Shown piece after piece: positions 22,042 through 31,736 of a stretch of DNA of 32,000 nucleotides. A program made the translations under genes and the position numbers. This DNA comes from Candidatus Thorarchaeota archaeon (GTDB lineage: Archaea > Asgardarchaeota > Thorarchaeia > Thorarchaeales > Thorarchaeaceae), in assembly GCA_003345555.1 (NCBI GenBank), contig PRDJ01000050.1, forward strand, positions 14,302-46,301, in the 5' to 3' direction. How positions within the stretch are numbered: the stretch's first letter is position 1; every line of letters starts with the position of its first letter. The notes under the pieces were generated by a model that saw nothing but the letters and a program-made list of their open reading frames with translations, was not told the origin of the DNA and did no database searches.

Positions 22042-22654
22042 GTCAATTTACGATGAAGTGCGGAAGTCTTGGCAAGCAGAGGTTGAGAGCGACGAAATCA
22101 AAGACCTAGATGATTTGCGTCTTGCCAGAATGACTTCATATCTCTCAGGCGTGCGGCTTCTTCTGGCGGAAACGCCCGCCGAGGATTTTCTGAAAGCAGA
22201 CCTATTGACTCAAGAAGCAGTGAATCTGGAGTTCATGTTAAACGATTTACTGATGGTTCGAAAGAAGAAGATACTGAACGCTGCTCTTGTGCAAAGACGC
22301 CCTCTTGGGAGCCTGACACTTGCGGAAGAAGAGTTCTACAACAGACTCGTGAGAGCTGTCGAAGGCCATGTTGAGTTCGTGAAGTCTGCTCTCTCCGGCA
22401 CATCTTCAGGTAGTGAATCAGTAAAGGGGGAAGAGTCTGTCGCGGCATCGCCGTCCGAATCCGGCGCAGTAGAATACGTCAGCGTTGTTTTTCTTCGTCC
22501 GGTGGAGCAAGCCTTTGTGGGATTGGATGAAGCCACCTACGGTCCTTTCAAAGTGGGTGATAATGCAATGATTCCGATAGAGAACGCACGTGGATGGCTT
22601 CGCGATGGCACAGTCGCCAGAGTAGTAATAGACAAACCGAAGGCGCGTGACTGA
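22034..22654 (+). CDS. GINS complex subunit Gins15 (Gins51)
   Basis: Helical A domain with RKKKIL and LTLAEEEFY, C-terminal B domain FVGLD..TYGPFKVGD...IP..NA. Canonical PCNA-PriS-GINS15 order; TTG start overlaps the priS stop. Confidence 0.9.
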   Translation: MNESIYDEVRKSWQAEVESDEIKDLDDLRLARMTSYLSGVRLLLAETPAEDFLKADLLTQEAVNLEFMLNDLLMVRKKKILNAALVQRRPLGSLTLAEEEFYNRLVRAVEGHVEFVKSALSGTSSGSESVKGEESVAASPSESGAVEYVSVVFLRPVEQAFVGLDEATYGPFKVGDNAMIPIENARGWLRDGTVARVVIDKPKARD

Positions 22655-22946
22655 GATGTCGCAAGAAACGCTGGTCAATCAACTCATTGAGCTCTCCGCT
22701 CAAATCGTCTCTGCTCGCGAGGATATCGAAAGGAAGCATAGGAAGATGCAGATAGCTCTTACGAATGTCCTACGATTGCTGTCTGAGGAAGAAGGGTCTA
22801 CTGCGAGCAAGATACAAGCCAACCCGAGTCGCCTGAAAGGTTACGTGCTGCGGGCTCTTTCCGAGCTGCGCGAAGACTCGCTGAGCCTTTGTGATACGCT
22901 GAGGTCTAGGGTCGATTCCATAATAGAGGTCGCACGAAATCCATAA
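22647..22946 (+). CDS. Hypothetical all-helical protein, 99 aa
   Basis: Overlaps the end of gins15 and has an amphipathic helical pattern; no recognised motif. Confidence 0.6.
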   Translation: MTEMSQETLVNQLIELSAQIVSAREDIERKHRKMQIALTNVLRLLSEEEGSTASKIQANPSRLKGYVLRALSELREDSLSLCDTLRSRVDSIIEVARNP

Positions 22947-22972: not shown

Positions 22973-23179
22973 ATGCCTCCGACAGGACGGTGGATTCTGA
23001 TTGTTGCAGGATTGGCTTCGGCAGCAATCGCATTGTTAGGAGCCGTCACATATCCTGGGACTACAAAGGATTTGGGAACAACCATCCTATACGAGATGGC
23101 TTTGTTCGCCGGCATATTCATCGTTCTCGGGCTCGCATACAAGCAGGGCTACACAGAACGCGAAATCTCCGTCCAGTGA
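22973..23179 (+). CDS. Small membrane protein with two predicted TM helices
   Basis: Hydrophobic segments WILIVAGLASAAIALLGAVTY and ILYEMALFAGIFIVLGLAY; fills the gap co-directionally. Confidence 0.6.
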   Translation: MPPTGRWILIVAGLASAAIALLGAVTYPGTTKDLGTTILYEMALFAGIFIVLGLAYKQGYTEREISVQ

Positions 23180-23351
23180 ATCAGATCGAATCAGCTTGCA
23201 ACTCCTCTCACTTGCGATGCCAGGAGCGACACATATCGGGTCACGTATGATGCAATCTAGTGAGTCAATTGTGAAACTCTTAAATGGGGGCTAGAATTCG
23301 GGACTGGCAGCGACCCAAGCAGGCGGATGCGCCCTCGGTGGTGCTTCTCTA

Positions 23352-23894
23352 ATGACTGAGGCAAAACAAATAGCTGGCCCACCAGCGACCCTTGTTGAAC
23401 CAATCGACATGTCCCAGCTGGATTCCAATTTCCGGGACGAAATACGAAGCATGCCTAATGGCGAAGAACTTGCTGCCTGTTTTGCATGTTCAACGTGCAC
23501 AGCGGCATGTCCCATTGCGAATCAGTGGAAGTACAAGCCTCACCAACTAATCAGGATGATTCTCCTTGGAATGCGCAGTGAGGTCTTGAATAGCAAAGAG
23601 ATATGGGAATGCCTCACTTGTTTTCAATGCCAAGAACGTTGTCCTCAGAAAGTGCGGATTACAGACATACTGTTCGACTGCAAGAATCTGGCCGCAGACG
23701 AAGGAAAGGTACCAGAGAAAATACTTGCACTTGCAAAGGAATTGATTGACAAGGGACAGCTCTATGTTGTGACGGCGGACTGGGAGCGTGAGGACCTTGG
23801 GCTTCAACCAGCAGTGCCCGGGCTTTCCACCGACGGAATCAAACAGATTCTGAGAGAGACTCGAACCGGGAAACTTGCTGGAGGTGGTACCTGA
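23352..23894 (+). CDS. hdrC: Heterodisulfide reductase subunit C-like (2x[4Fe-4S])
   Basis: CFACSTCTAACP, PHQLIRMILLG and IWECLTCFQCQERCPQ motifs. Confidence 0.93.
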   Translation: MTEAKQIAGPPATLVEPIDMSQLDSNFRDEIRSMPNGEELAACFACSTCTAACPIANQWKYKPHQLIRMILLGMRSEVLNSKEIWECLTCFQCQERCPQKVRITDILFDCKNLAADEGKVPEKILALAKELIDKGQLYVVTADWEREDLGLQPAVPGLSTDGIKQILRETRTGKLAGGGT

Positions 23895-23895
23895 A

Positions 23896-24762
23896 ATGCC
23901 GATGTACAACCTCTACATGGGTTGCAGCGTTCCAGCGAATTATCCCAACTACGAAGCGGCCGTGATGAAGGTTGGCGAAGCGCTGGGCATGGAATTCGAG
24001 TACATGACCGACGTCGCCTGCTGTGGCAGCCCTAATCTACGGTCAATCGATTACTTCGGTTGGCTGGTTGTGAACGGGCGCACTCTCGCGATAGCAGAGA
24101 AGAATGGACATGATATAGTTACTCCGTGCAATGGATGCTTTGGCTCGCTGAAGGACGTACAGCATCACTTGAAGCATGATGAGAAGGACCGTTCGCGCGT
24201 AAACAAGGAACTCAAGAAAATGGGCCTGGAGTTCAGAGGCACGGTCAAAGTACGCCATGTGATCGAAGCTCTCTACACCGATATCGGAATCGAGGAGATT
24301 CAGCGCAAAATCACTAGACCACTTGACGGCGTTGGCATCTCGATTCACTATGGCTGCCACCTTCTTCGGCCTGATGATGTTACAGAGTTCAAGCCTGAGA
24401 TGCTGGACGCGTTGGTCCGGGCAACTGGTGCGAAAGTGGTCGAGTATCCCCTTTGGAAGCAGTGCTGCGGTGCTACAGTTCTGCCAGTCAATGAACCCTT
24501 GGCAATTCGACTCGCCAGAGACAAAATCCGCTCCATGAAAGAAGCCGGGGCGGAATTCGCGACAGTGGTATGCCCAGCATGTGGAAATCAGCTAGACCTC
24601 CAACAAGTGGGATTGAAGGACTCCTACGGCGAGGTATATGACCTGCCGGTGTTACTCTATCCACAGATTCTGGCCCTAGCACTTGGAATCAACGAGGATG
24701 CCATCGGCCTTCGTATGAATCGTGTGCCTGCAGACTCAATACTCCCGCACTTGAAGGGCTGA
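23896..24762 (+). CDS. hdrB: Heterodisulfide reductase subunit B-like (two CCG domains)
   Basis: YMGC, CCGS, TPCNGC, HYGCHLLRP, CCGA, CPAC..QLD and PQILALALG motifs. Confidence 0.93.
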   Translation: MPMYNLYMGCSVPANYPNYEAAVMKVGEALGMEFEYMTDVACCGSPNLRSIDYFGWLVVNGRTLAIAEKNGHDIVTPCNGCFGSLKDVQHHLKHDEKDRSRVNKELKKMGLEFRGTVKVRHVIEALYTDIGIEEIQRKITRPLDGVGISIHYGCHLLRPDDVTEFKPEMLDALVRATGAKVVEYPLWKQCCGATVLPVNEPLAIRLARDKIRSMKEAGAEFATVVCPACGNQLDLQQVGLKDSYGEVYDLPVLLYPQILALALGINEDAIGLRMNRVPADSILPHLKG

Positions 24763-24775
24763 GGTGAACTGCGGA

Positions 24776-26026
24776 GTGTCTGACCCGGTCCTCGTCATTG
24801 GAGCTGGAGTCGCAGGAATGACCGTAGCTGCAGAACTCTCTGACGCCGGGATTAAGACAGTCCTCGTGGAAAGGTCTTCCACTATGGGGGGTAATGCGCT
24901 GGATCTCTACAAAGCCTTTCCAACCGATGATTGCTTCTATTGCTTTGAGGGCAACCGTTGGAGACCCGGAATTCGCAAGTGCTTCTACAGAAGTACAATG
25001 ACTGATCAGCCCAACATCGACGTCCGGACAGGCTGCGAGGTTGTCGATATTTCAGGCAGTCCGGGCGAGTTCAAGGTCAAGATTGCTGCTGCCCCAAGGT
25101 ACATTGAGCCCAAGAAATGCACCATGTGCGGACTTTGTGTCGGCCTCTCGAAAGCATTCTATCTGGTATCTCCGCAGTGTCAGCCTCAAGCAGTAGTCTA
25201 TAATCCTCAAAGGCCCGATGAAGGTACCGAGAAAGCTGAAAGAGAGTGCCCCACCAAGGCAATCAATCTGCAAGCACAACCCTTTGAGGAGACGCTCCGA
25301 ATCTCGGACATAGTAATCGCGACCGGCTATCATGAGATGAAACCGGTTGACATGGTGGAATACGGTTACGGAAAGGTTCCCAATGTTATCACGCAGCTGG
25401 AACTCGCGCAGATACTCGACCCAAATGGAAAATCGGGGGGCGCTCTGATACGACCTTCGGATGGGTCTCCAGTCAAGAACATCCTCATGGTTCAATGCGT
25501 CGGAAGCAGGGATGAGAGCTATCACCCCTATTGCTCGAAGATATGTTGTGTGTTTGCGCTCAAACATGCGAATATTGTCATGCAAGAGAGAGGAAACGCA
25601 AGAGTCTCCGTAGTCTATATGGACATTCGAACCTATGACCGACATGAACGCTACTATCGGGAGGCACGACAGGCTGGAGTCGAGTTCATACGAGGTCGTG
25701 TCACGCGAGTGGAGCGGGCGAGGGATGATGCTCTGCAAATCACGGTCTATGACTCTCTGCTTGACAAGTATCTGAAGTTCTCAGTGGACCTTCTTGTCTT
25801 GTCTTCCGCTCTAGAGCCTCAGCCGGACATGGCAGGACTCATCGAAAAGCTAGGACTCAGCTCTTCGGATGGCTTTGTGAAACCCGCTGACCAGCTCTCT
25901 GAGAATGAGGTTGTAGCCGGAGACCATCTTTACGTCTGTGGCACAGCGGCTGGCCCTGCTGAGGTTCCGGAGAGTGTGACTCAGGCTAGGGCTGTGGTAT
26001 CCATGATTCTTCAAGGCAGGGCGTGA
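24776..26026 (+). CDS. HdrA-family flavoprotein, QmoA-like size (about 416 aa)
   Basis: FAD motif VIGAGVAG, FPTDDCxxC, YGYG..PNVIT.LE, cluster motif QCVGSR...CSKICC, YMDIRT and FIRGR. GTG start follows GAGGTGA. Confidence 0.9.
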   Translation: MSDPVLVIGAGVAGMTVAAELSDAGIKTVLVERSSTMGGNALDLYKAFPTDDCFYCFEGNRWRPGIRKCFYRSTMTDQPNIDVRTGCEVVDISGSPGEFKVKIAAAPRYIEPKKCTMCGLCVGLSKAFYLVSPQCQPQAVVYNPQRPDEGTEKAERECPTKAINLQAQPFEETLRISDIVIATGYHEMKPVDMVEYGYGKVPNVITQLELAQILDPNGKSGGALIRPSDGSPVKNILMVQCVGSRDESYHPYCSKICCVFALKHANIVMQERGNARVSVVYMDIRTYDRHERYYREARQAGVEFIRGRVTRVERARDDALQITVYDSLLDKYLKFSVDLLVLSSALEPQPDMAGLIEKLGLSSSDGFVKPADQLSENEVVAGDHLYVCGTAAGPAEVPESVTQARAVVSMILQGRA

Positions 26027-28200
26027 TAGCAGTGACGACGGACAAGTCAGCAGCACTACTGTGCACTTGTGGCAAGACGCTGCGGCTTGACTATGAGTTG
26101 CTGAAGAGGGAGACTCAGGAGACGAATCTTGCCGCCGTTGTCGCAATCCATGACTTAGTCTGCCAAGAAGACGGCCTAGCCCAGATTGAAAGTTTAATCG
26201 ATGACTACGGAGGTCGTCTAGTCATTGCTGCCTGTACAAGTCAGAAAATCAGGCCAAGGATTGATCAGTATCTAAGAGCAAGGGGAAAGGATTCGTCTCA
26301 GATACAATATGTCAACATTCGAGAGCAATCTGCATGGGTGCATAGCGACCAAGATGAGGCCAGCAAGAAGAGTGCTGCTATGATTCACGGAGTTCTGGCA
26401 TGTTCTGCTCTGTCCGTACCTCTCACCTTTGAGCACAAGGAAGTACCCGCTCACGTGACTGTCATTGGCGGCGGCATATCAGGAATCGAATCAGCCCTGA
26501 GCCTTTCTAGATTGGGATATAATGTGTCCTTAATTGAACTGAGCGAGCAACTGGGCGGGCATGTGATTAGTCTGCCCCTAGTTACACCAACAGGGCGGTC
26601 CGGAAGAGAGGTCCTTAGCGGAAGATTGCAGGAACTGGAGACAAGTGAAAGGATTAGCGTTATGACAGGCGCAAGAGTGAAGTTCGTAGAAGGCGAAATG
26701 GGAAACTTCACAGTGCACTACGTCCCGACCAAGGGCGGAGAGGAGAAGAAGTTCAAAACATCGGCCATTGTGCTCGCGATGGGTTTTCAGGAATTCAAAC
26801 CGACAGCATTGGAAGAGTACAGATACGGCAAGAACCCGAATGTGGTCACGCAGTTTGAGTTATCCCGCATGCTAAGTGAAGAGAACCTATCGAGGCCCTC
26901 TGATGGTCAGCCAATCAGAGAGATCATCATGGTCCAATGCGTGGGCAGTAGATCGGAAGACTACAAACGGGATTGTAGCAAGCTCTGCTGTACTTTCGCC
27001 ATTGACAATGCATTGGAGACGATGAAGAGAGTCCCGGACGCCAAAGTCCGCATCATATACATGGACATTCGTGTGCCTTTCGAGAATGAGATAGTCTACA
27101 AAGAGTCTCGTGAGAAGGGCGTAGACTACATTCGTGGCAGAGTCAGCATGGTCTGGGAAAAGGAGGGCAGAACTTGGGTGCGGTTTTATGACTCTCTTCT
27201 TGACAGGTACTTTGAGACAAGTCCTGATTTACTGGTGCTATCCTCAGCAATTCTGCCCGCGGAGGGGGTTACAGAGTTATCACAGTCACTTGGCTTCGCG
27301 GTGGAATACGATGGTCATGTGAAGGAGCTCTACGGCAAACTCCGACGAAATGAGACTAGGAGGAGAGGAGTGGTCGCCGTCGGCGCAATCACGCGCCCTC
27401 AGTTCGTATTTGAAGCCGTGACTGACGCACAGGCCGCCGCACTGATGCTCCATAATGAGTTACAGAATGGTAAGATTGAGACCTTTGCACGTGGTGCAGT
27501 TCTGAAAGCTGATGATTGTGTTGGCTGTAGCTTGTGTGCTCAGCAGTGTCCTCGTGGCGTACCTCTTATGGTTGAGCAAACCGATGCTGAGGCCAAGAGC
27601 GAGGCTCAGAAGATACTATTCAAGGCCACAATCGACACTCTGAACTGTCACGCTTGTGGTATATGTCAAAGTCTGTGTCCGTCTGCTGCAACTCAGCTCA
27701 ACTTCCTTTCGAACGACCAGTTGTGGTCAGAAATCGAGGGAACACTAGATGGAGCAGGACCTGACTATCCAATAACTGTCTGTTTCTACTGTGAAGAGTG
27801 TGCTGTATCTACTATCGACATAGTTGGGACTCGAAGGATGGGGTACCCGGCAAGCACTCGCCTAATCCCCGTTCCGTGTTCAGGGCGGGTATCGATAATC
27901 GATATCCTCAAGGCGTTCGAGCACGGTGCGAGCACAGTGATGGTTGCAGCCTGTGAGAAAGACCGCTGTCATATTGGCGGGACAGGAAACGAGATTGCTC
28001 AGATTCAGGTAGACGTCGCGCGAGAGATACTGGATGCCATCGGGTGGCAGGGCGAGCGGGTCGAGATGTTTAGGATGTTCAGCGCTGAACCTGAACGATT
28101 CACACGCGCTGTAAATGAGATGGTTAAGCGAGCTCAGACTCTTGGCCCGACACCAGTTCATCTGGGCACAGCTGGGAAGTGGATGGAGGCGAGCCCTTGA
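26023..28200 (+). CDS. HdrA-MvhD fusion, QmoB-like architecture (FAD, [4Fe-4S] clusters, C-terminal [2Fe-2S] MvhD domain)
   Basis: CTCG...C...AAC...VNIREQ..WVH HdrA N-terminus, VIGGGISG, QCVGSR...CSKLCC, ferredoxin CVGCSLCAQQCP and CHACGICQSLCP, and MvhD CFYCEEC...PCSGR...AACEKDRCH. Confidence 0.92.
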   Translation: MIAVTTDKSAALLCTCGKTLRLDYELLKRETQETNLAAVVAIHDLVCQEDGLAQIESLIDDYGGRLVIAACTSQKIRPRIDQYLRARGKDSSQIQYVNIREQSAWVHSDQDEASKKSAAMIHGVLACSALSVPLTFEHKEVPAHVTVIGGGISGIESALSLSRLGYNVSLIELSEQLGGHVISLPLVTPTGRSGREVLSGRLQELETSERISVMTGARVKFVEGEMGNFTVHYVPTKGGEEKKFKTSAIVLAMGFQEFKPTALEEYRYGKNPNVVTQFELSRMLSEENLSRPSDGQPIREIIMVQCVGSRSEDYKRDCSKLCCTFAIDNALETMKRVPDAKVRIIYMDIRVPFENEIVYKESREKGVDYIRGRVSMVWEKEGRTWVRFYDSLLDRYFETSPDLLVLSSAILPAEGVTELSQSLGFAVEYDGHVKELYGKLRRNETRRRGVVAVGAITRPQFVFEAVTDAQAAALMLHNELQNGKIETFARGAVLKADDCVGCSLCAQQCPRGVPLMVEQTDAEAKSEAQKILFKATIDTLNCHACGICQSLCPSAATQLNFLSNDQLWSEIEGTLDGAGPDYPITVCFYCEECAVSTIDIVGTRRMGYPASTRLIPVPCSGRVSIIDILKAFEHGASTVMVAACEKDRCHIGGTGNEIAQIQVDVAREILDAIGWQGERVEMFRMFSAEPERFTRAVNEMVKRAQTLGPTPVHLGTAGKWMEASP

Positions 28201-30461
28201 GCACCATGGAAGAAGCAAGAGAGATGGCGCCCAAGAGACGTCGAATGATGGACATGGTCCTGACACTGGGCGGTCTCAGAGAGGAGTCTGCAATACCAGC
28301 TAGTAGAATCGCCGAAGAGATTGAGAACCTGAAGCGCGGACTCCTACCATTGACAGAATCAATACTGGCATTTCCAGACGCGTATTTCAACGCTTTCTTG
28401 GACATAGCTCTGCGAATAGGGCTGGTCGATCAGATAACCGACAAGGCCCTTCTCAGGGAGGCGGTCTCAAACCTTGAGAAGGCGGTATCAAGTGGTGAGT
28501 CCAAAGGCATTGCGGGCCTTCTGAACTCCCTGAAAACACTGCTTGCCAAAACAGAGAAGACTGAAGTTGAGAGCGTTGGCCGCCAAGCAGCAGACATCAC
28601 AGAATCCCTGAAGCTAATCCATGATACCATCCCAAGAGTAGAGTCGGTCCTTGGAGAGTACGATGAGAAAGCCAAGTCAAACGCCACAGGGGCAATTGCA
28701 GACATCAAATCCTTAGCAGAATCATTCTCACTCGTTCTGCAGGACTCCAGTTCGAATCCTGAAGCAAGGCTTGACGCACTTCAGAAACTCGGCACAAAGA
28801 CTAGGTACGGACCGTTCCTGCGAGCCGTTGCTCAGGTGAAGCGTGGAAAGAGAGAGGGACGGATTAGTGACGAGCGTCTGGTCAGGCTGCTTACGGGCAA
28901 CCTCGTGAACGAGCTGTATCGCGGAATGATTCTTTTCATTCTAAATAACGCCGGTTCGAAGACGGTCGTTCAGATGTCTGACTCGATGAAGGTTTCTCCT
29001 GAAAGAATCCAATTCGTAATCATCTCGATGATTCAGAGAGGCGAGGTGGAGATAGCCGGTCTCGACGGTGATGCACCAGTTTTCTCCCGCGTCCTGCCTG
29101 CCACTCCTCCAACAACACTGATAGTGAAGAGGGTGGTTCAACAGCTTCGGGGGCTTGTCAAATCGTTACAAGGGCCAGCAAAGGACTCTGCCAAGGACTC
29201 TCTTGAGCGGTTAGGTCTTGTTCAGGAAAAGCTGCAATTGCTAGGCGAATATGATGAATCGATGATATCGGATCACATGAATGCTATCCGAGAGGCTGTG
29301 GACGCGGCAACGGAGGCTGTCCTTCAGTCACAAAGCACCGAGAGCTCAGAAGACCTCCGACTGCTCGTGTCTGCGGGCCTTGAAGCATTTACAAGGTTTA
29401 GGCTCAAGATAGCGCTGGAAAAGGGTCCGCGATTGGTTTCGCAGGCGAATGTCTACGGTGAGAAGCTTGACCCCGAGGTCTACGAGAAGCTCATGGAGAC
29501 GTACCTCGACAATGAGCTCGAGCGAGGTATGATACTTGTTCTCATCCGTGAGATAGGTGCCATGACAGCACACGACCTAGCAGAAAAGACACACATCCCA
29601 CAAAACCGTGTATTCCAGCATCTGCTGCGGTTGAAGCGGGACGAGCTCCTCACGATTGCAGGAGAAACCCACGGCTACGTGCAGTATGACATTCCTCGAA
29701 CCCCAAATGAGGCTGAGATTACAATAAAGACGGTGGGCGGCTTGGCACTTCAGCTTACCAGTGCACAGAGCGATCTCAAGAGCATCTTGAGTAACCTCCG
29801 CCCCGATGACATAGGTCGGCTTGCTTCTTCTCTCGATATATTCTCCAAGTCTTGCGACAAGATGACCAAAATCAAGGTCGCAGGAAATGTGGTTGCTGAG
29901 CCCGTACTGAAGGATGTAGAAGGCAAGATCAAGTCGGCAGTCCTTCTCGCTTACCGTGCTCGCGCGAGAATCCCAAGCACGCGACCCCGAGTTACGGTGG
30001 AAGAGTTGACGGATATTGATGTTCCATCTGTAATGGACGAGTATCGCGATATGATGGGATATGCTCCGCTGCTTGGCTTTGGAACTATCAACTGGGCTCA
30101 TGCCAAGTGCCTAGGCTGCAAGTCGTGTGAGATAAGCTGCCCCGAGCACGCCATAGAGCTCAAACCAACCATGGACATTCCAAAGTTTTTCGAGTTCTCC
30201 GAAGACGATCTCAAGCTCCTGCCTGCTAACAAGGCTGCGTTCTACAGGACTGTCCGGAGCCTTGCAACCGCGAAGCCCTCCGGTAGCGTAGCATTGAAGG
30301 AAGGTTCTCCGGGATTCGGAAAGGTCGAGGTAGACCTATGGTTGTGTGTGGCCTGCAGGACATGCATAAGGCGTTGTCCTGGACCCGAAAGCGGTGCTCT
30401 GGATTTGGAGCTGAAATGGAGTCTGCCTGAAGTAGTAAAGGCAATGACTGCCCAGAGCTGA
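28197..30461 (+). CDS. Uncharacterised Hdr-operon protein: helical domains, two winged-helix repeats and a C-terminal 2x[4Fe-4S] ferredoxin
   Basis: Internal repeat NEL.RGMIL...IAG at 28908-29084 and 29511-29687; CLGCKSCEISCP and CVACRTCIRRCP. TTG start overlaps the upstream TGA, with GGAGG 8 nt before. Confidence 0.8.
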   Translation: MSTMEEAREMAPKRRRMMDMVLTLGGLREESAIPASRIAEEIENLKRGLLPLTESILAFPDAYFNAFLDIALRIGLVDQITDKALLREAVSNLEKAVSSGESKGIAGLLNSLKTLLAKTEKTEVESVGRQAADITESLKLIHDTIPRVESVLGEYDEKAKSNATGAIADIKSLAESFSLVLQDSSSNPEARLDALQKLGTKTRYGPFLRAVAQVKRGKREGRISDERLVRLLTGNLVNELYRGMILFILNNAGSKTVVQMSDSMKVSPERIQFVIISMIQRGEVEIAGLDGDAPVFSRVLPATPPTTLIVKRVVQQLRGLVKSLQGPAKDSAKDSLERLGLVQEKLQLLGEYDESMISDHMNAIREAVDAATEAVLQSQSTESSEDLRLLVSAGLEAFTRFRLKIALEKGPRLVSQANVYGEKLDPEVYEKLMETYLDNELERGMILVLIREIGAMTAHDLAEKTHIPQNRVFQHLLRLKRDELLTIAGETHGYVQYDIPRTPNEAEITIKTVGGLALQLTSAQSDLKSILSNLRPDDIGRLASSLDIFSKSCDKMTKIKVAGNVVAEPVLKDVEGKIKSAVLLAYRARARIPSTRPRVTVEELTDIDVPSVMDEYRDMMGYAPLLGFGTINWAHAKCLGCKSCEISCPEHAIELKPTMDIPKFFEFSEDDLKLLPANKAAFYRTVRSLATAKPSGSVALKEGSPGFGKVEVDLWLCVACRTCIRRCPGPESGALDLELKWSLPEVVKAMTAQS

Positions 30462-30536: not shown

Positions 30537-31736
30537 TTGATAGACTTCAGTCTCACCGCTGAGCAATTTGCGCTTCAGAAGAAAGCACGAGAGTTTGCTC
30601 AACAGTATATGATTCCGTACGCTCACTACTACGACAAGACCGGCGAGTTCCCGCTGCCAATCATCCGAAAGTGCTGGGAATCCGGTCTCATGAATCTCGG
30701 CATACCAAAAGAGTACGGTGGCGCCGGGCTTGGTATTATTGACATGTGTTTAGTAGTCGAGGAGATGGCTGCAGGCTGTGCAGGGATGACAACTAGCATC
30801 TATGCCAACTCCTTGGGTGCTGAACCGATTCTTGTCGCAGGCACGAGCGAACAGAAGGAGAAGTACTTGAGACCGCTGACGAAGGAACTGAAGTTCATTA
30901 GCTTTGCAACTTCAGAACCGGGAATGGGCAGCGATGTGGCAGGCATCCAGACTCACGCAAGGAAGGAAGGCAACCACTACGTTCTGAATGGGAGTAAGTT
31001 CTGGATCACGAACGCACCTTACGCCGACACTTTCACGATATTCGCAAGCCTAGACCCCAGTCAACGACACAAGGCTCTATGTGCATTTATCGTTGATGCA
31101 GATTCATCCGGCCTGAAGACCGGGCGCCCAGTCGAGAAGATGGGTCACAGGGCATCAGCGACATCGTCCGTTATGCTCAAGGATGTAAACGTCCCAGAAG
31201 AGAACCTGCTGGGGTCTGAAGGTCAGGGCTTCCTAATCGCAATGTCAACCTTCGCCATGACACGACCGGCAATCGCAGCATTCTCGACCGGTCTCGCGAG
31301 GGCCGCCATGGAGTTCGCCCGAGAGTACGTCAACAAGAGGGAAGCATTCGGAGAAAAGCTGCGGAAGTTCGAGGTCACGCAGTTCAAGTTGGCTGAAATG
31401 TACATGAAAATCGAGGCCTCAAGAATGCTGTACCTTAAGGCTGCATGGGAAGCTGACACTATCGGCGATTCGACTGTCGCGGCGAGTGTTGCGAAAGCCT
31501 TTGCGACGGACGCCGCGATGTGGGTTGCGAGCGAAGCTGTTCAGCTGCACGGCGGATATGGCTACATTGACCAGTACCCACTGGAGAAACTGTTTCGCGA
31601 TGCCAAGCTGTACCAAATCTACGAGGGCACCAGCGAGATTCAGCGGCTCATTCTTGGTCGTCACGTCCTAGATGGTTATGACCCGGCGATGGAGAAGATT
31701 CCGAGGTGGGGATCCATGACTCCCCCCGATTTCTGA
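30537..31736 (+). CDS. Acyl-CoA dehydrogenase
   Basis: FATSEPGMGSDVAG, LNGSKFWITNA, KMGHRAS, QLHGGYGY and catalytic IYEGTSEIQR motifs. Confidence 0.96.
   Translation: MIDFSLTAEQFALQKKAREFAQQYMIPYAHYYDKTGEFPLPIIRKCWESGLMNLGIPKEYGGAGLGIIDMCLVVEEMAAGCAGMTTSIYANSLGAEPILVAGTSEQKEKYLRPLTKELKFISFATSEPGMGSDVAGIQTHARKEGNHYVLNGSKFWITNAPYADTFTIFASLDPSQRHKALCAFIVDADSSGLKTGRPVEKMGHRASATSSVMLKDVNVPEENLLGSEGQGFLIAMSTFAMTRPAIAAFSTGLARAAMEFAREYVNKREAFGEKLRKFEVTQFKLAEMYMKIEASRMLYLKAAWEADTIGDSTVAASVAKAFATDAAMWVASEAVQLHGGYGYIDQYPLEKLFRDAKLYQIYEGTSEIQRLILGRHVLDGYDPAMEKIPRWGSMTPPDF

Follow-up and report, generated by a model that had tools for sequence, protein, structure and literature searches.

In methanogens, electrons are fed by MvhG into the Hdr complex at the position formed by the C-terminal ferredoxin of HdrA and MvhD; in the QmoAB-HdrBC systems of sulfur-cycling prokaryotes, a short HdrA is followed by an HdrA::MvhD fusion and accompanied by HdrBC; and HdrL carries a GltD/SudA-type NAD(P)H module as an insert. 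The present analysis deals with gene X, an open reading frame (ORF) of a Candidatus Thorarchaeota archaeon (contig PRDJ01000050.1) that lies in an hdr operon, within a stretch of 32 000 nucleotides that is referred to as the window and provides the numbering used throughout. X is likely to be a dedicated electron-relay and scaffold subunit of an HdrC-HdrB-HdrA1-HdrA2::MvhD complex for flavin-based electron bifurcation or confurcation, and not a regulator. Its parts are all of known kinds; the architecture of the subunit is undescribed, no paper describing X having been found in the literature and, as had been stated from the sequence alone, no characterized Hdr subunit sharing its architecture.

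Two groups of described complexes are closest. The HdrA C-terminal ferredoxin/MvhD entry site is used by the Mvh mobile arm of methanogens (PMC13580544). In the class II benzoyl-CoA reductase (BCRII) of Geobacter metallireducens, studied by electron cryo-microscopy, BamE is a fused HdrA dimer with one bifurcating and one non-bifurcating flavin adenine dinucleotide (FAD), the MvhD adaptor BamF is more than 100 amino acids (aa) longer than usual and interfaces through its winged helix-turn-helix (wHTH) with the iron-sulfur (Fe-S) relay BamI, and the I3 cluster of BamI feeds the C-terminal ferredoxin of BamE (bioRxiv 10.64898/2026.04.10.717634).

The locus is ordered as follows:

23273-23286 (+), archaeal BRE/TATA-like box upstream of hdrC, conserved in 10 loci
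23352-23894 (+), HdrC (family match)
23875-24762 (+), HdrB with two CCG domains (family match)
24764-26026 (+), HdrA1, 420 aa, of QmoA-like architecture, in which the bifurcation Lys (SKICCVFALK) and a Cys pair (PTDDCFYC) are present (family match, alignment)
26023-28200 (+), HdrA2::MvhD, 725 aa, of QmoB-like architecture, with Asp for the bifurcation Lys and no CxxC (family match, alignment)
28197-30461 (+), gene X, 754 aa, made up of a KR-helix at the N-terminus, three helical bundles with modules 1 and 2 between them, and a 2x[4Fe-4S] ferredoxin with a docking insert (ORF, homologues, AlphaFold2, Cys conservation)
30537-31736 (+), acyl-CoA dehydrogenase (family match, synteny)

Like QmoAB-HdrBC, the X operon combines a short HdrA, an HdrA::MvhD fusion and HdrBC; unlike it, there is no QmoC and no aprA (the genome, 93% complete, gave no match to TIGR02061), X and the acyl-CoA dehydrogenase standing in their place, and the neighbours in the window are replication genes besides this dehydrogenase. 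The likeness to BamF and BamI extends to an HdrA-type complex in which one FAD is bifurcating, with the Lys, and the other non-bifurcating, to an MvhD-associated wHTH that in X is predicted to serve protein docking, an Fe-S relay that, according to a model, would feed the HdrA C-terminal ferredoxin, and a link to acyl-CoA/ETF (electron-transferring flavoprotein) chemistry on the HdrB-like side. Unlike in BamF, however, the wHTH module of X is detached from MvhD, duplicated and probably set within a ferredoxin, with no N-terminal MvhD [2Fe-2S] domain in the chain; and unlike in BCRII, no BamGH/NuoEF module is found in the genome and no BamBC gene in the locus.

The ferredoxin of X and the HdrA2-MvhD arm

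As the sequence-only reading had it, the TTG start of X overlaps the TGA stop (28198-28200) of HdrA2::MvhD (…CCCTTGAGC). Other in-frame starts are a GTG at 28179 and an ATG at 28206; the TTG start fits the commonest length of the X homologues, 754 aa (64/120). The protein can be divided into:

28230-28295 (+), N-terminal helix, residues 12-33 (K13 and R14 invariant; Fd2 first-helix profile)
28752-29093 (+), module 1, residues ~186-299, a diverged long-MvhD tail copy with wHTH1 (residues 243-298) at its end (profiles, AlphaFold2)
29346-29696 (+), module 2, residues ~384-500, FRLK...NVYGEK...wHTH2 (long-MvhD tail homology; Pfam HTH_5 at residues 445-484)
30018-30458 (+), 2x[4Fe-4S] ferredoxin of the Fd2 type, residues ~608-754 (Cys motifs at 30108-30143 and 30345-30380)
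30219-30317 (+), insert helix and loop, residues 675-707, placed on MvhD in the complex model

The two CxxCxxCxxxCP motifs that had been read at the C-terminus are C638-P649 and C717-P728, with a ~65-aa insert between them, and all eight Cys are invariant in 69 homologues. The region scores 35.6 against Pfam Fer4_7 (cut-off 27) and, with both motifs in one ferredoxin core, forms a single dicluster domain of the 2x[4Fe-4S] kind; the FwdF model gives 17.9 (cut-off 375), the three or more domains of the MvhB/FwdF polyferredoxins being absent, and the ESM Atlas returned only generic ferredoxin clusters for the X C-terminus. X has no FlpD match, the MvhD domain sitting on the upstream HdrA2 instead.

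A complex of X with residues 485-725 of HdrA2 was modelled, the alignments of both chains being drawn from one set of loci in matching order, and reached an ipSAE of 0.81 (0.86, 0.72 and 0.81 in the single runs); of three controls, the best gave 0.00. At least 76% of the contacts were common to the runs, and the partner pLDDT was at least 79; the ipSAE mark is reached by 58 of 80 solved complexes and by 2 of 110 mismatched pairs, counts that are only a rough guide when own alignments are used. In the model, the confident interface joins X residues 639-732 to the Cys regions of the HdrA2 ferredoxin and to the MvhD helices: X helix 677-689 rests on helices of MvhD (residues 140-149 and 184-191 of the partner), and the residues surrounding the C638/641/644/727 cluster are opposite those of the C15/18/21/68 cluster in the C-terminal ferredoxin of HdrA2. 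The residues listed for this interface include none from a wHTH; the contact with the HdrA-MvhD arm, for which modelling had been proposed, is predicted to run through the ferredoxin. The model supports docking of the X ferredoxin at the electron-input face of HdrA2-MvhD. That it merely recalls a solved docking helix is unlikely, because the Fd2-type ferredoxin matches PDB entries only in the ferredoxin core. The predicted placement resembles that of MvhG, FdhB and ElpB in MvhAGD-HdrABC, Fdh-Hdr and Elp-Hdr (PDB 5ODC, 7BKB, 8RVU; PMC13580544), in which an Fe-S subunit sits on the HdrA C-terminal ferredoxin/MvhD mobile arm; unlike these subunits, with which it shares sequence and fold only in the 55-76-residue ferredoxin core, X is without a catalytic domain (save in a variant with a GltD module), and HdrA is split into two unequal paralogues.

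Conservation of the locus is in keeping with a subunit of such a complex. X is matched in all 85 other genomes of the Thorarchaeota family, mostly at full length and with 50-88% identity, a few of the matches being fragments or a weak paralogue only; orthologues of the same length (21-25% identity) occur in seven genomes of three other Asgard families. Once duplicate assemblies are removed, an MvhD domain is directly upstream of X in 77 of 79 distinct assemblies with enough flank, the distant Asgard orthologues included, which bears out the expected linkage to hdrA-mvhD elsewhere, and an acyl-CoA dehydrogenase is directly downstream in 74 of 75 distinct Thorarchaeota assemblies, although these genomes are kin and the counts are not independent trials. 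In the distant families, hdrCB follows X instead, and a double-HdrA plus MvhD unit is found just upstream. One candidate for an unlinked X (G368, a genome of a single contig, 77% complete) was dropped, as an intact MvhD domain (83% identical; L051:9725-10141 (-)) precedes the gene; only this domain does so, the orthologous hdrA2 and hdrA1/hdrBC being absent beside X.

Both the flavin Lys and the Cys pair are present in HdrA1 in 15/15 loci, and HdrA2 has Asp, Arg or Asn and no Cys pair, which matches the division between the bifurcating and the non-bifurcating FAD of BamE. In Thorarchaeota, the ferredoxin inserted in HdrA1 retains no more than CxxCxxC and a lone CP, a fourth Cys being present in the distant families; the low-potential exit of HdrA1 may have lost a cluster in Thorarchaeota.

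Fd2 ferredoxins and a possible two-faced connector

Fd2 is the name used here for an uncurated family of ~160-aa, two-repeat 2x[4Fe-4S] ferredoxins, on which no paper was found either. Each repeat consists of a KR-L-L-LA-K-P helix, a VP...GFG.I strand and a CxxCxxCxxxC motif. The family hidden Markov model (HMM) matches X with 83 bits over model positions 31-155, and X is shown by this homology to be an expanded member of the family. An Fd2 structure model (pLDDT 92) compares with 1DUR at VIA Z 8.2 and a root-mean-square deviation of 1.7 A over 55 residues, likeness to PDB entries being limited to the ferredoxin core. In 18 of 18 loci, chosen by likeness to X and not by gene context, Fd2 comes after HdrA::MvhD or is fused to MvhD, often with a second HdrA-MvhD or an HdrL following.

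The Fd2 model aligns to the C-terminal part of X only from position ~27-31 onward. The missing first helix is best placed at X residues 12-33, which are among the top two windows in 65 of 69 homologues and also the best, if weak, match in hhalign (E=0.023). The N-terminal helix is therefore probably, on what is suggestive evidence, the displaced first Fd2 helix and a candidate second docking face, and X is probably an Fd2 with ~575 residues inserted after that helix. The sequence-only proposal of a module duplicated, split off and joined to a ferredoxin stands as regards the duplication and the homology to MvhD tails; the joining has to be turned round, the modules having probably been inserted into a pre-existing two-repeat ferredoxin.

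A more specific form of the relay explanation, which is possible but should be held tentatively, is that the pseudo-symmetric ferredoxin bridges HdrA2::MvhD and a second HdrA/HdrL-MvhD unit back to back, the wHTHs clamping or oligomerizing the supercomplex. The two helix-plus-cluster repeats of Fd2, the recurrent Fd2-MvhD fusions, the order HdrA::MvhD - Fd2 - HdrA - MvhD or HdrL, the double-HdrA plus MvhD unit of the distant X loci and the invariance of K13 and R14 speak for it; however, the N-terminal helix of X keeps to the Fd2 consensus for no more than ~15 residues and is only weakly homologous. With similar reserve, Fd2 proteins might be Asgard's own pseudo-symmetric two-faced connectors, joining HdrA-MvhD arms with one another or with exchangeable donors, of which X would be the giant form, with wHTH docking modules inserted, in a multi-Hdr supercomplex coupled to acyl-CoA oxidation or reduction.

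A second conserved Thorarchaeota operon (L093-L110) has the order hdrC hdrB hdrA1 hdrA2::mvhD Fd2::mvhD, followed by hdrA hdrC hdrB or by a 1134-aa HdrL; in the genome of the window itself, no Fd2::MvhD was found.

The repeated modules and their winged helices

The AlphaFold2 model of X (mean pLDDT 79, pTM 0.42) shows, as had been anticipated, a helix-turn-helix with a beta-hairpin wing in both copies and helical bundles ahead of each. The internal repeat had been read as ungapped and of 59 aa. The count of 14/59 identical positions, with copies starting at residues 238 and 439, is right, but it was dropped as proof because this count or a higher one arises somewhere in 116 of 200 shuffles of X; profile comparison was used instead and establishes a true duplication, with P=98.2% and E=4e-14 for module against module and P=98% over 179 columns for residues 100-303 against 304-503. 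With a shallower alignment, P for the repeat was 92%. By these profiles the real repeat unit is ~200 aa, a bundle plus a module, although the three helical bundles give no mutual match when compared alone (P<14%). Foldseek with the whole protein found weak wHTH or helical matches only, and the top one, RPC62, was dismissed as a whole-fold homologue for its TM-score of 0.09 despite an E of 9e-5.

Module 2 had been said to resemble an extension of MvhD, and this is confirmed by a family HMM, which modules 1 and 2 match with E values of 1.5e-11 and 2.9e-28. It is homologous to the C-terminal tail of an uncurated 'long MvhD' (PF02662 plus a ~115-aa helix/NVYGEK/wHTH tail; Asgard, Thermodesulfobacteriota) and to free-standing proteins of ~120 aa, the layout (helix, R-x-R-W/K-L-I-G/E-K helix, NVYGEK hairpin, E-x-x-R helix, wHTH) being that of the long-MvhD tail. 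The module 2 profile matched 597 representatives (50% clustering); the best 149 of them include 43 clear MvhD fusions, 65 stand-alone proteins (150 aa or less) and 10 X-like ones, and, as many of the 31 other matches are truncated MvhD fusions, 43 is a minimum. A word-based search for shorter relatives had returned X fragments only. The tail form occurs in Thermodesulfobacteriota also among ESM Atlas clusters, and in the loci fetched both fused and free forms lie within multi-HdrA clusters. X thus has the module and the Hdr-cluster context in common with the long MvhD and differs from it in its two module copies, its ferredoxin and the absence of an MvhD domain.

Do these domains bind nucleic acids? 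The sequence-only reading had put first a coupling of redox state to DNA or RNA binding, that is, a redox-sensing transcription factor or nucleic-acid tether in which the Fe-S clusters sense the Hdr redox state and the tandem wHTHs bind DNA or RNA, perhaps besides docking. This is improbable, although the wHTH fold of the model is a true one, wHTH2 passes Pfam HTH_5 (27.6 bits, cut-off 22), the closest PDB sequences to the module are HlyU/ArsR-type regulators and Z-alpha domains, and the wHTHs are free in the complex model. Curated regulator models all score below cut-off (NCBIfam NF033788, ArsR/SmtB, 23.6 versus 55; MarR 22.0 versus 24.6; TrmB 22.2 versus 25.6). A polar, base-reading recognition helix with a basic wing, the sort of surface named as a check, is not present: recognition helix 2 is still basic (mean net charge +2.6), but the wings of both copies carry a mean of -3.0 (62 Thorarchaeota) versus +0.8 +/- 2.5 in 29 ordinary wHTHs of the same genome, and the recognition-helix positions -2 and +2 from the His are both hydrophobic in 94 of 134 family members versus 1 of those 29. 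The most conserved residues of the module family (R18, R20, W21, G24, K25, E56 and R59) precede the helix-turn-helix, the BRE/TATA box alone is conserved outside the coding sequence upstream of hdrC, the promoter covered, in 10 loci, with no operator-like motif there, the ferredoxin is docked on the input face in the model, and X is within the operon and translationally coupled as a stoichiometric subunit would be.

A natural variant bears on the same question. In seven Thorarchaeota genomes, X is 972-998 aa long (L043:4057-6975 (-), L044, L045, L089-L092). Residues ~206-417, wHTH1 included, are replaced in this form by a GltD/SudA-type module (Fer4_20 plus FAD/NAD(P)) in which both the FAD and the NAD motifs are intact, and the first bundle is shorter. 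The module scores 485.7 bits against PRK12771 (cut-off 516). Like HdrL, this form has a complete Fer4_20 + Pyr_redox_2 module; unlike in HdrL, the module is inserted in the adaptor and not in HdrA, and it is absent from the 754-aa protein of the window. The tandem wHTH is dispensable, since wHTH1 is replaced here, and an electron donor/acceptor domain in its stead is as expected for a relay, not for a regulator. In a quick tree, six variants form one clade and one stands apart, all nested among 754-aa types; the g11 copies are not grouped with other g11 X proteins, and the variant is possibly of two origins.

The wHTHs of X therefore probably grip partner proteins rather than regulate genes, in line with the scaffold that had been offered as a fallback, and the automatic 'MarR/ArsR/IscR regulator' labels (JGI names) of X-type proteins are probably wrong. 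A wHTH-only protein of 80 aa (L112:2086-2325 (-); C36:9085-9324 in the window's own genome) has a hydrophobic recognition helix and an acidic wing as in the X modules, and its gene belongs to a second Hdr-hydrogenase cluster, in which it is flanked by mvhD and by mvhG/mvhA, the order being hdrL ... hdrC hdrB hdrA hdrA mvhD wHTH mvhG mvhA.

Proposed electron path and its setting

In the favoured relay/scaffold explanation, electrons from a donor would pass through the X clusters to the HdrA2 C-terminal ferredoxin, on to the [2Fe-2S] cluster of MvhD and then to the FAD of the Lys-bearing HdrA1, where they would be split between HdrBC and a low-potential exit, or else the chain may run in reverse during acyl-CoA oxidation. 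The X face made up of helix 677-689 and the C638/641/644/727 cluster would rest on MvhD, against the cluster of the HdrA2 C-terminal ferredoxin. The ~575-aa insertion, with its helical bundles and two long-MvhD tail modules, would act as a spacer or scaffold, the wHTHs and the N-terminal helix holding a partner that serves the second X cluster. This partner may be a further HdrA/HdrL-MvhD arm or an MvhAG hydrogenase with its genes elsewhere, and the genome does hold other HdrA/HdrL-MvhD units and group 3-like NiFe hydrogenases as candidates; in the ~972-aa variant it would be part of X itself, in the form of the GltD-type NAD(P)H flavoprotein. Coupling of X to acyl-CoA redox chemistry is suggested by the single ETF of the genome together with the adjacent acyl-CoA dehydrogenase, by analogy with the ETF on BamD.

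That X would instead be an MvhB/FwdF-like low-potential output wire, from the HdrA1 inserted ferredoxin to a downstream reductase, as MvhB links the HdrA output to Fmd (PMC13580544), is very unlikely: MvhB and FwdF are the best PDB sequence matches of the Fd2 profile through generic Cys motifs only, X has only two clusters and is modelled on the HdrA C-terminal ferredoxin/MvhD arm, i.e. on the input side, and the HdrA1 inserted ferredoxin motif is partial in Thorarchaeota.

Several points weigh against the relay/scaffold explanation itself. The X-HdrA2::MvhD complex is a prediction, and part of its confidence may come from likeness, because HdrA C-terminal ferredoxin-MvhD structures are in the PDB; the X interface residues do not exceed the remainder of the domain in conservation (0.73 versus 0.77). 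No partner protein has been identified for the wHTHs, and the genome (93% complete) has no NuoF/HydB (BamH-like) match, so that a BamGHI-type partner is not evident. Two g9 genomes part X from hdrA2-mvhD, by 2.7 kb in one and on another contig in the second. As noted, the statistics for homology between the N-terminal helix and Fd2 are weak, and the homology of the X module to the BamF tail is drawn from the architecture as the paper describes it.

A single RNA run (8% of words) gave a few short contigs in hdrB, hdrA1 and the acyl-CoA dehydrogenase gene and none in X, and is uninformative on expression or co-transcription; a sigma-70 promoter/terminator scan, with a model unsuited to archaea, stayed at shuffle level. 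Just upstream of the hdrC promoter, a 68-aa protein with two transmembrane segments (22973-23179 (+)) is present in 10/10 aligned Thorarchaeota loci, with no Pfam family above cut-off, and a 99-aa helical ORF (22647-22946 (+)), which overlaps the end of the GINS gene, is syntenic in Thorarchaeota (25-35% identity), with no Pfam family. In distant Asgard X operons, a conserved, highly charged, coiled-coil-like protein of ~95-100 aa, which is not a wHTH module, directly precedes hdrA1 (L036:5507-5800, L039:13754-14056, L040:5248-5532, L041:4969-5277, L042:14472-14777).

The multiplicity of hdrA copies in Thorarchaeota and other Asgard archaea has been noted (PMC11237513). X, which occurs in essentially every Thorarchaeota genome, is a likely candidate for the part at the electron-entry site of the most conserved Thorarchaeota Hdr complex, beside an acyl-CoA dehydrogenase. 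Fd2 and the GltD-swap variant, moreover, lead to a rule, open to testing, for the way in which HdrA-MvhD arms receive their donors in the absence of MvhG. If the two-faced connector were to prove true, it would mean a new architecture for electron bifurcation in series and would be a core energy module of Thorarchaeota.

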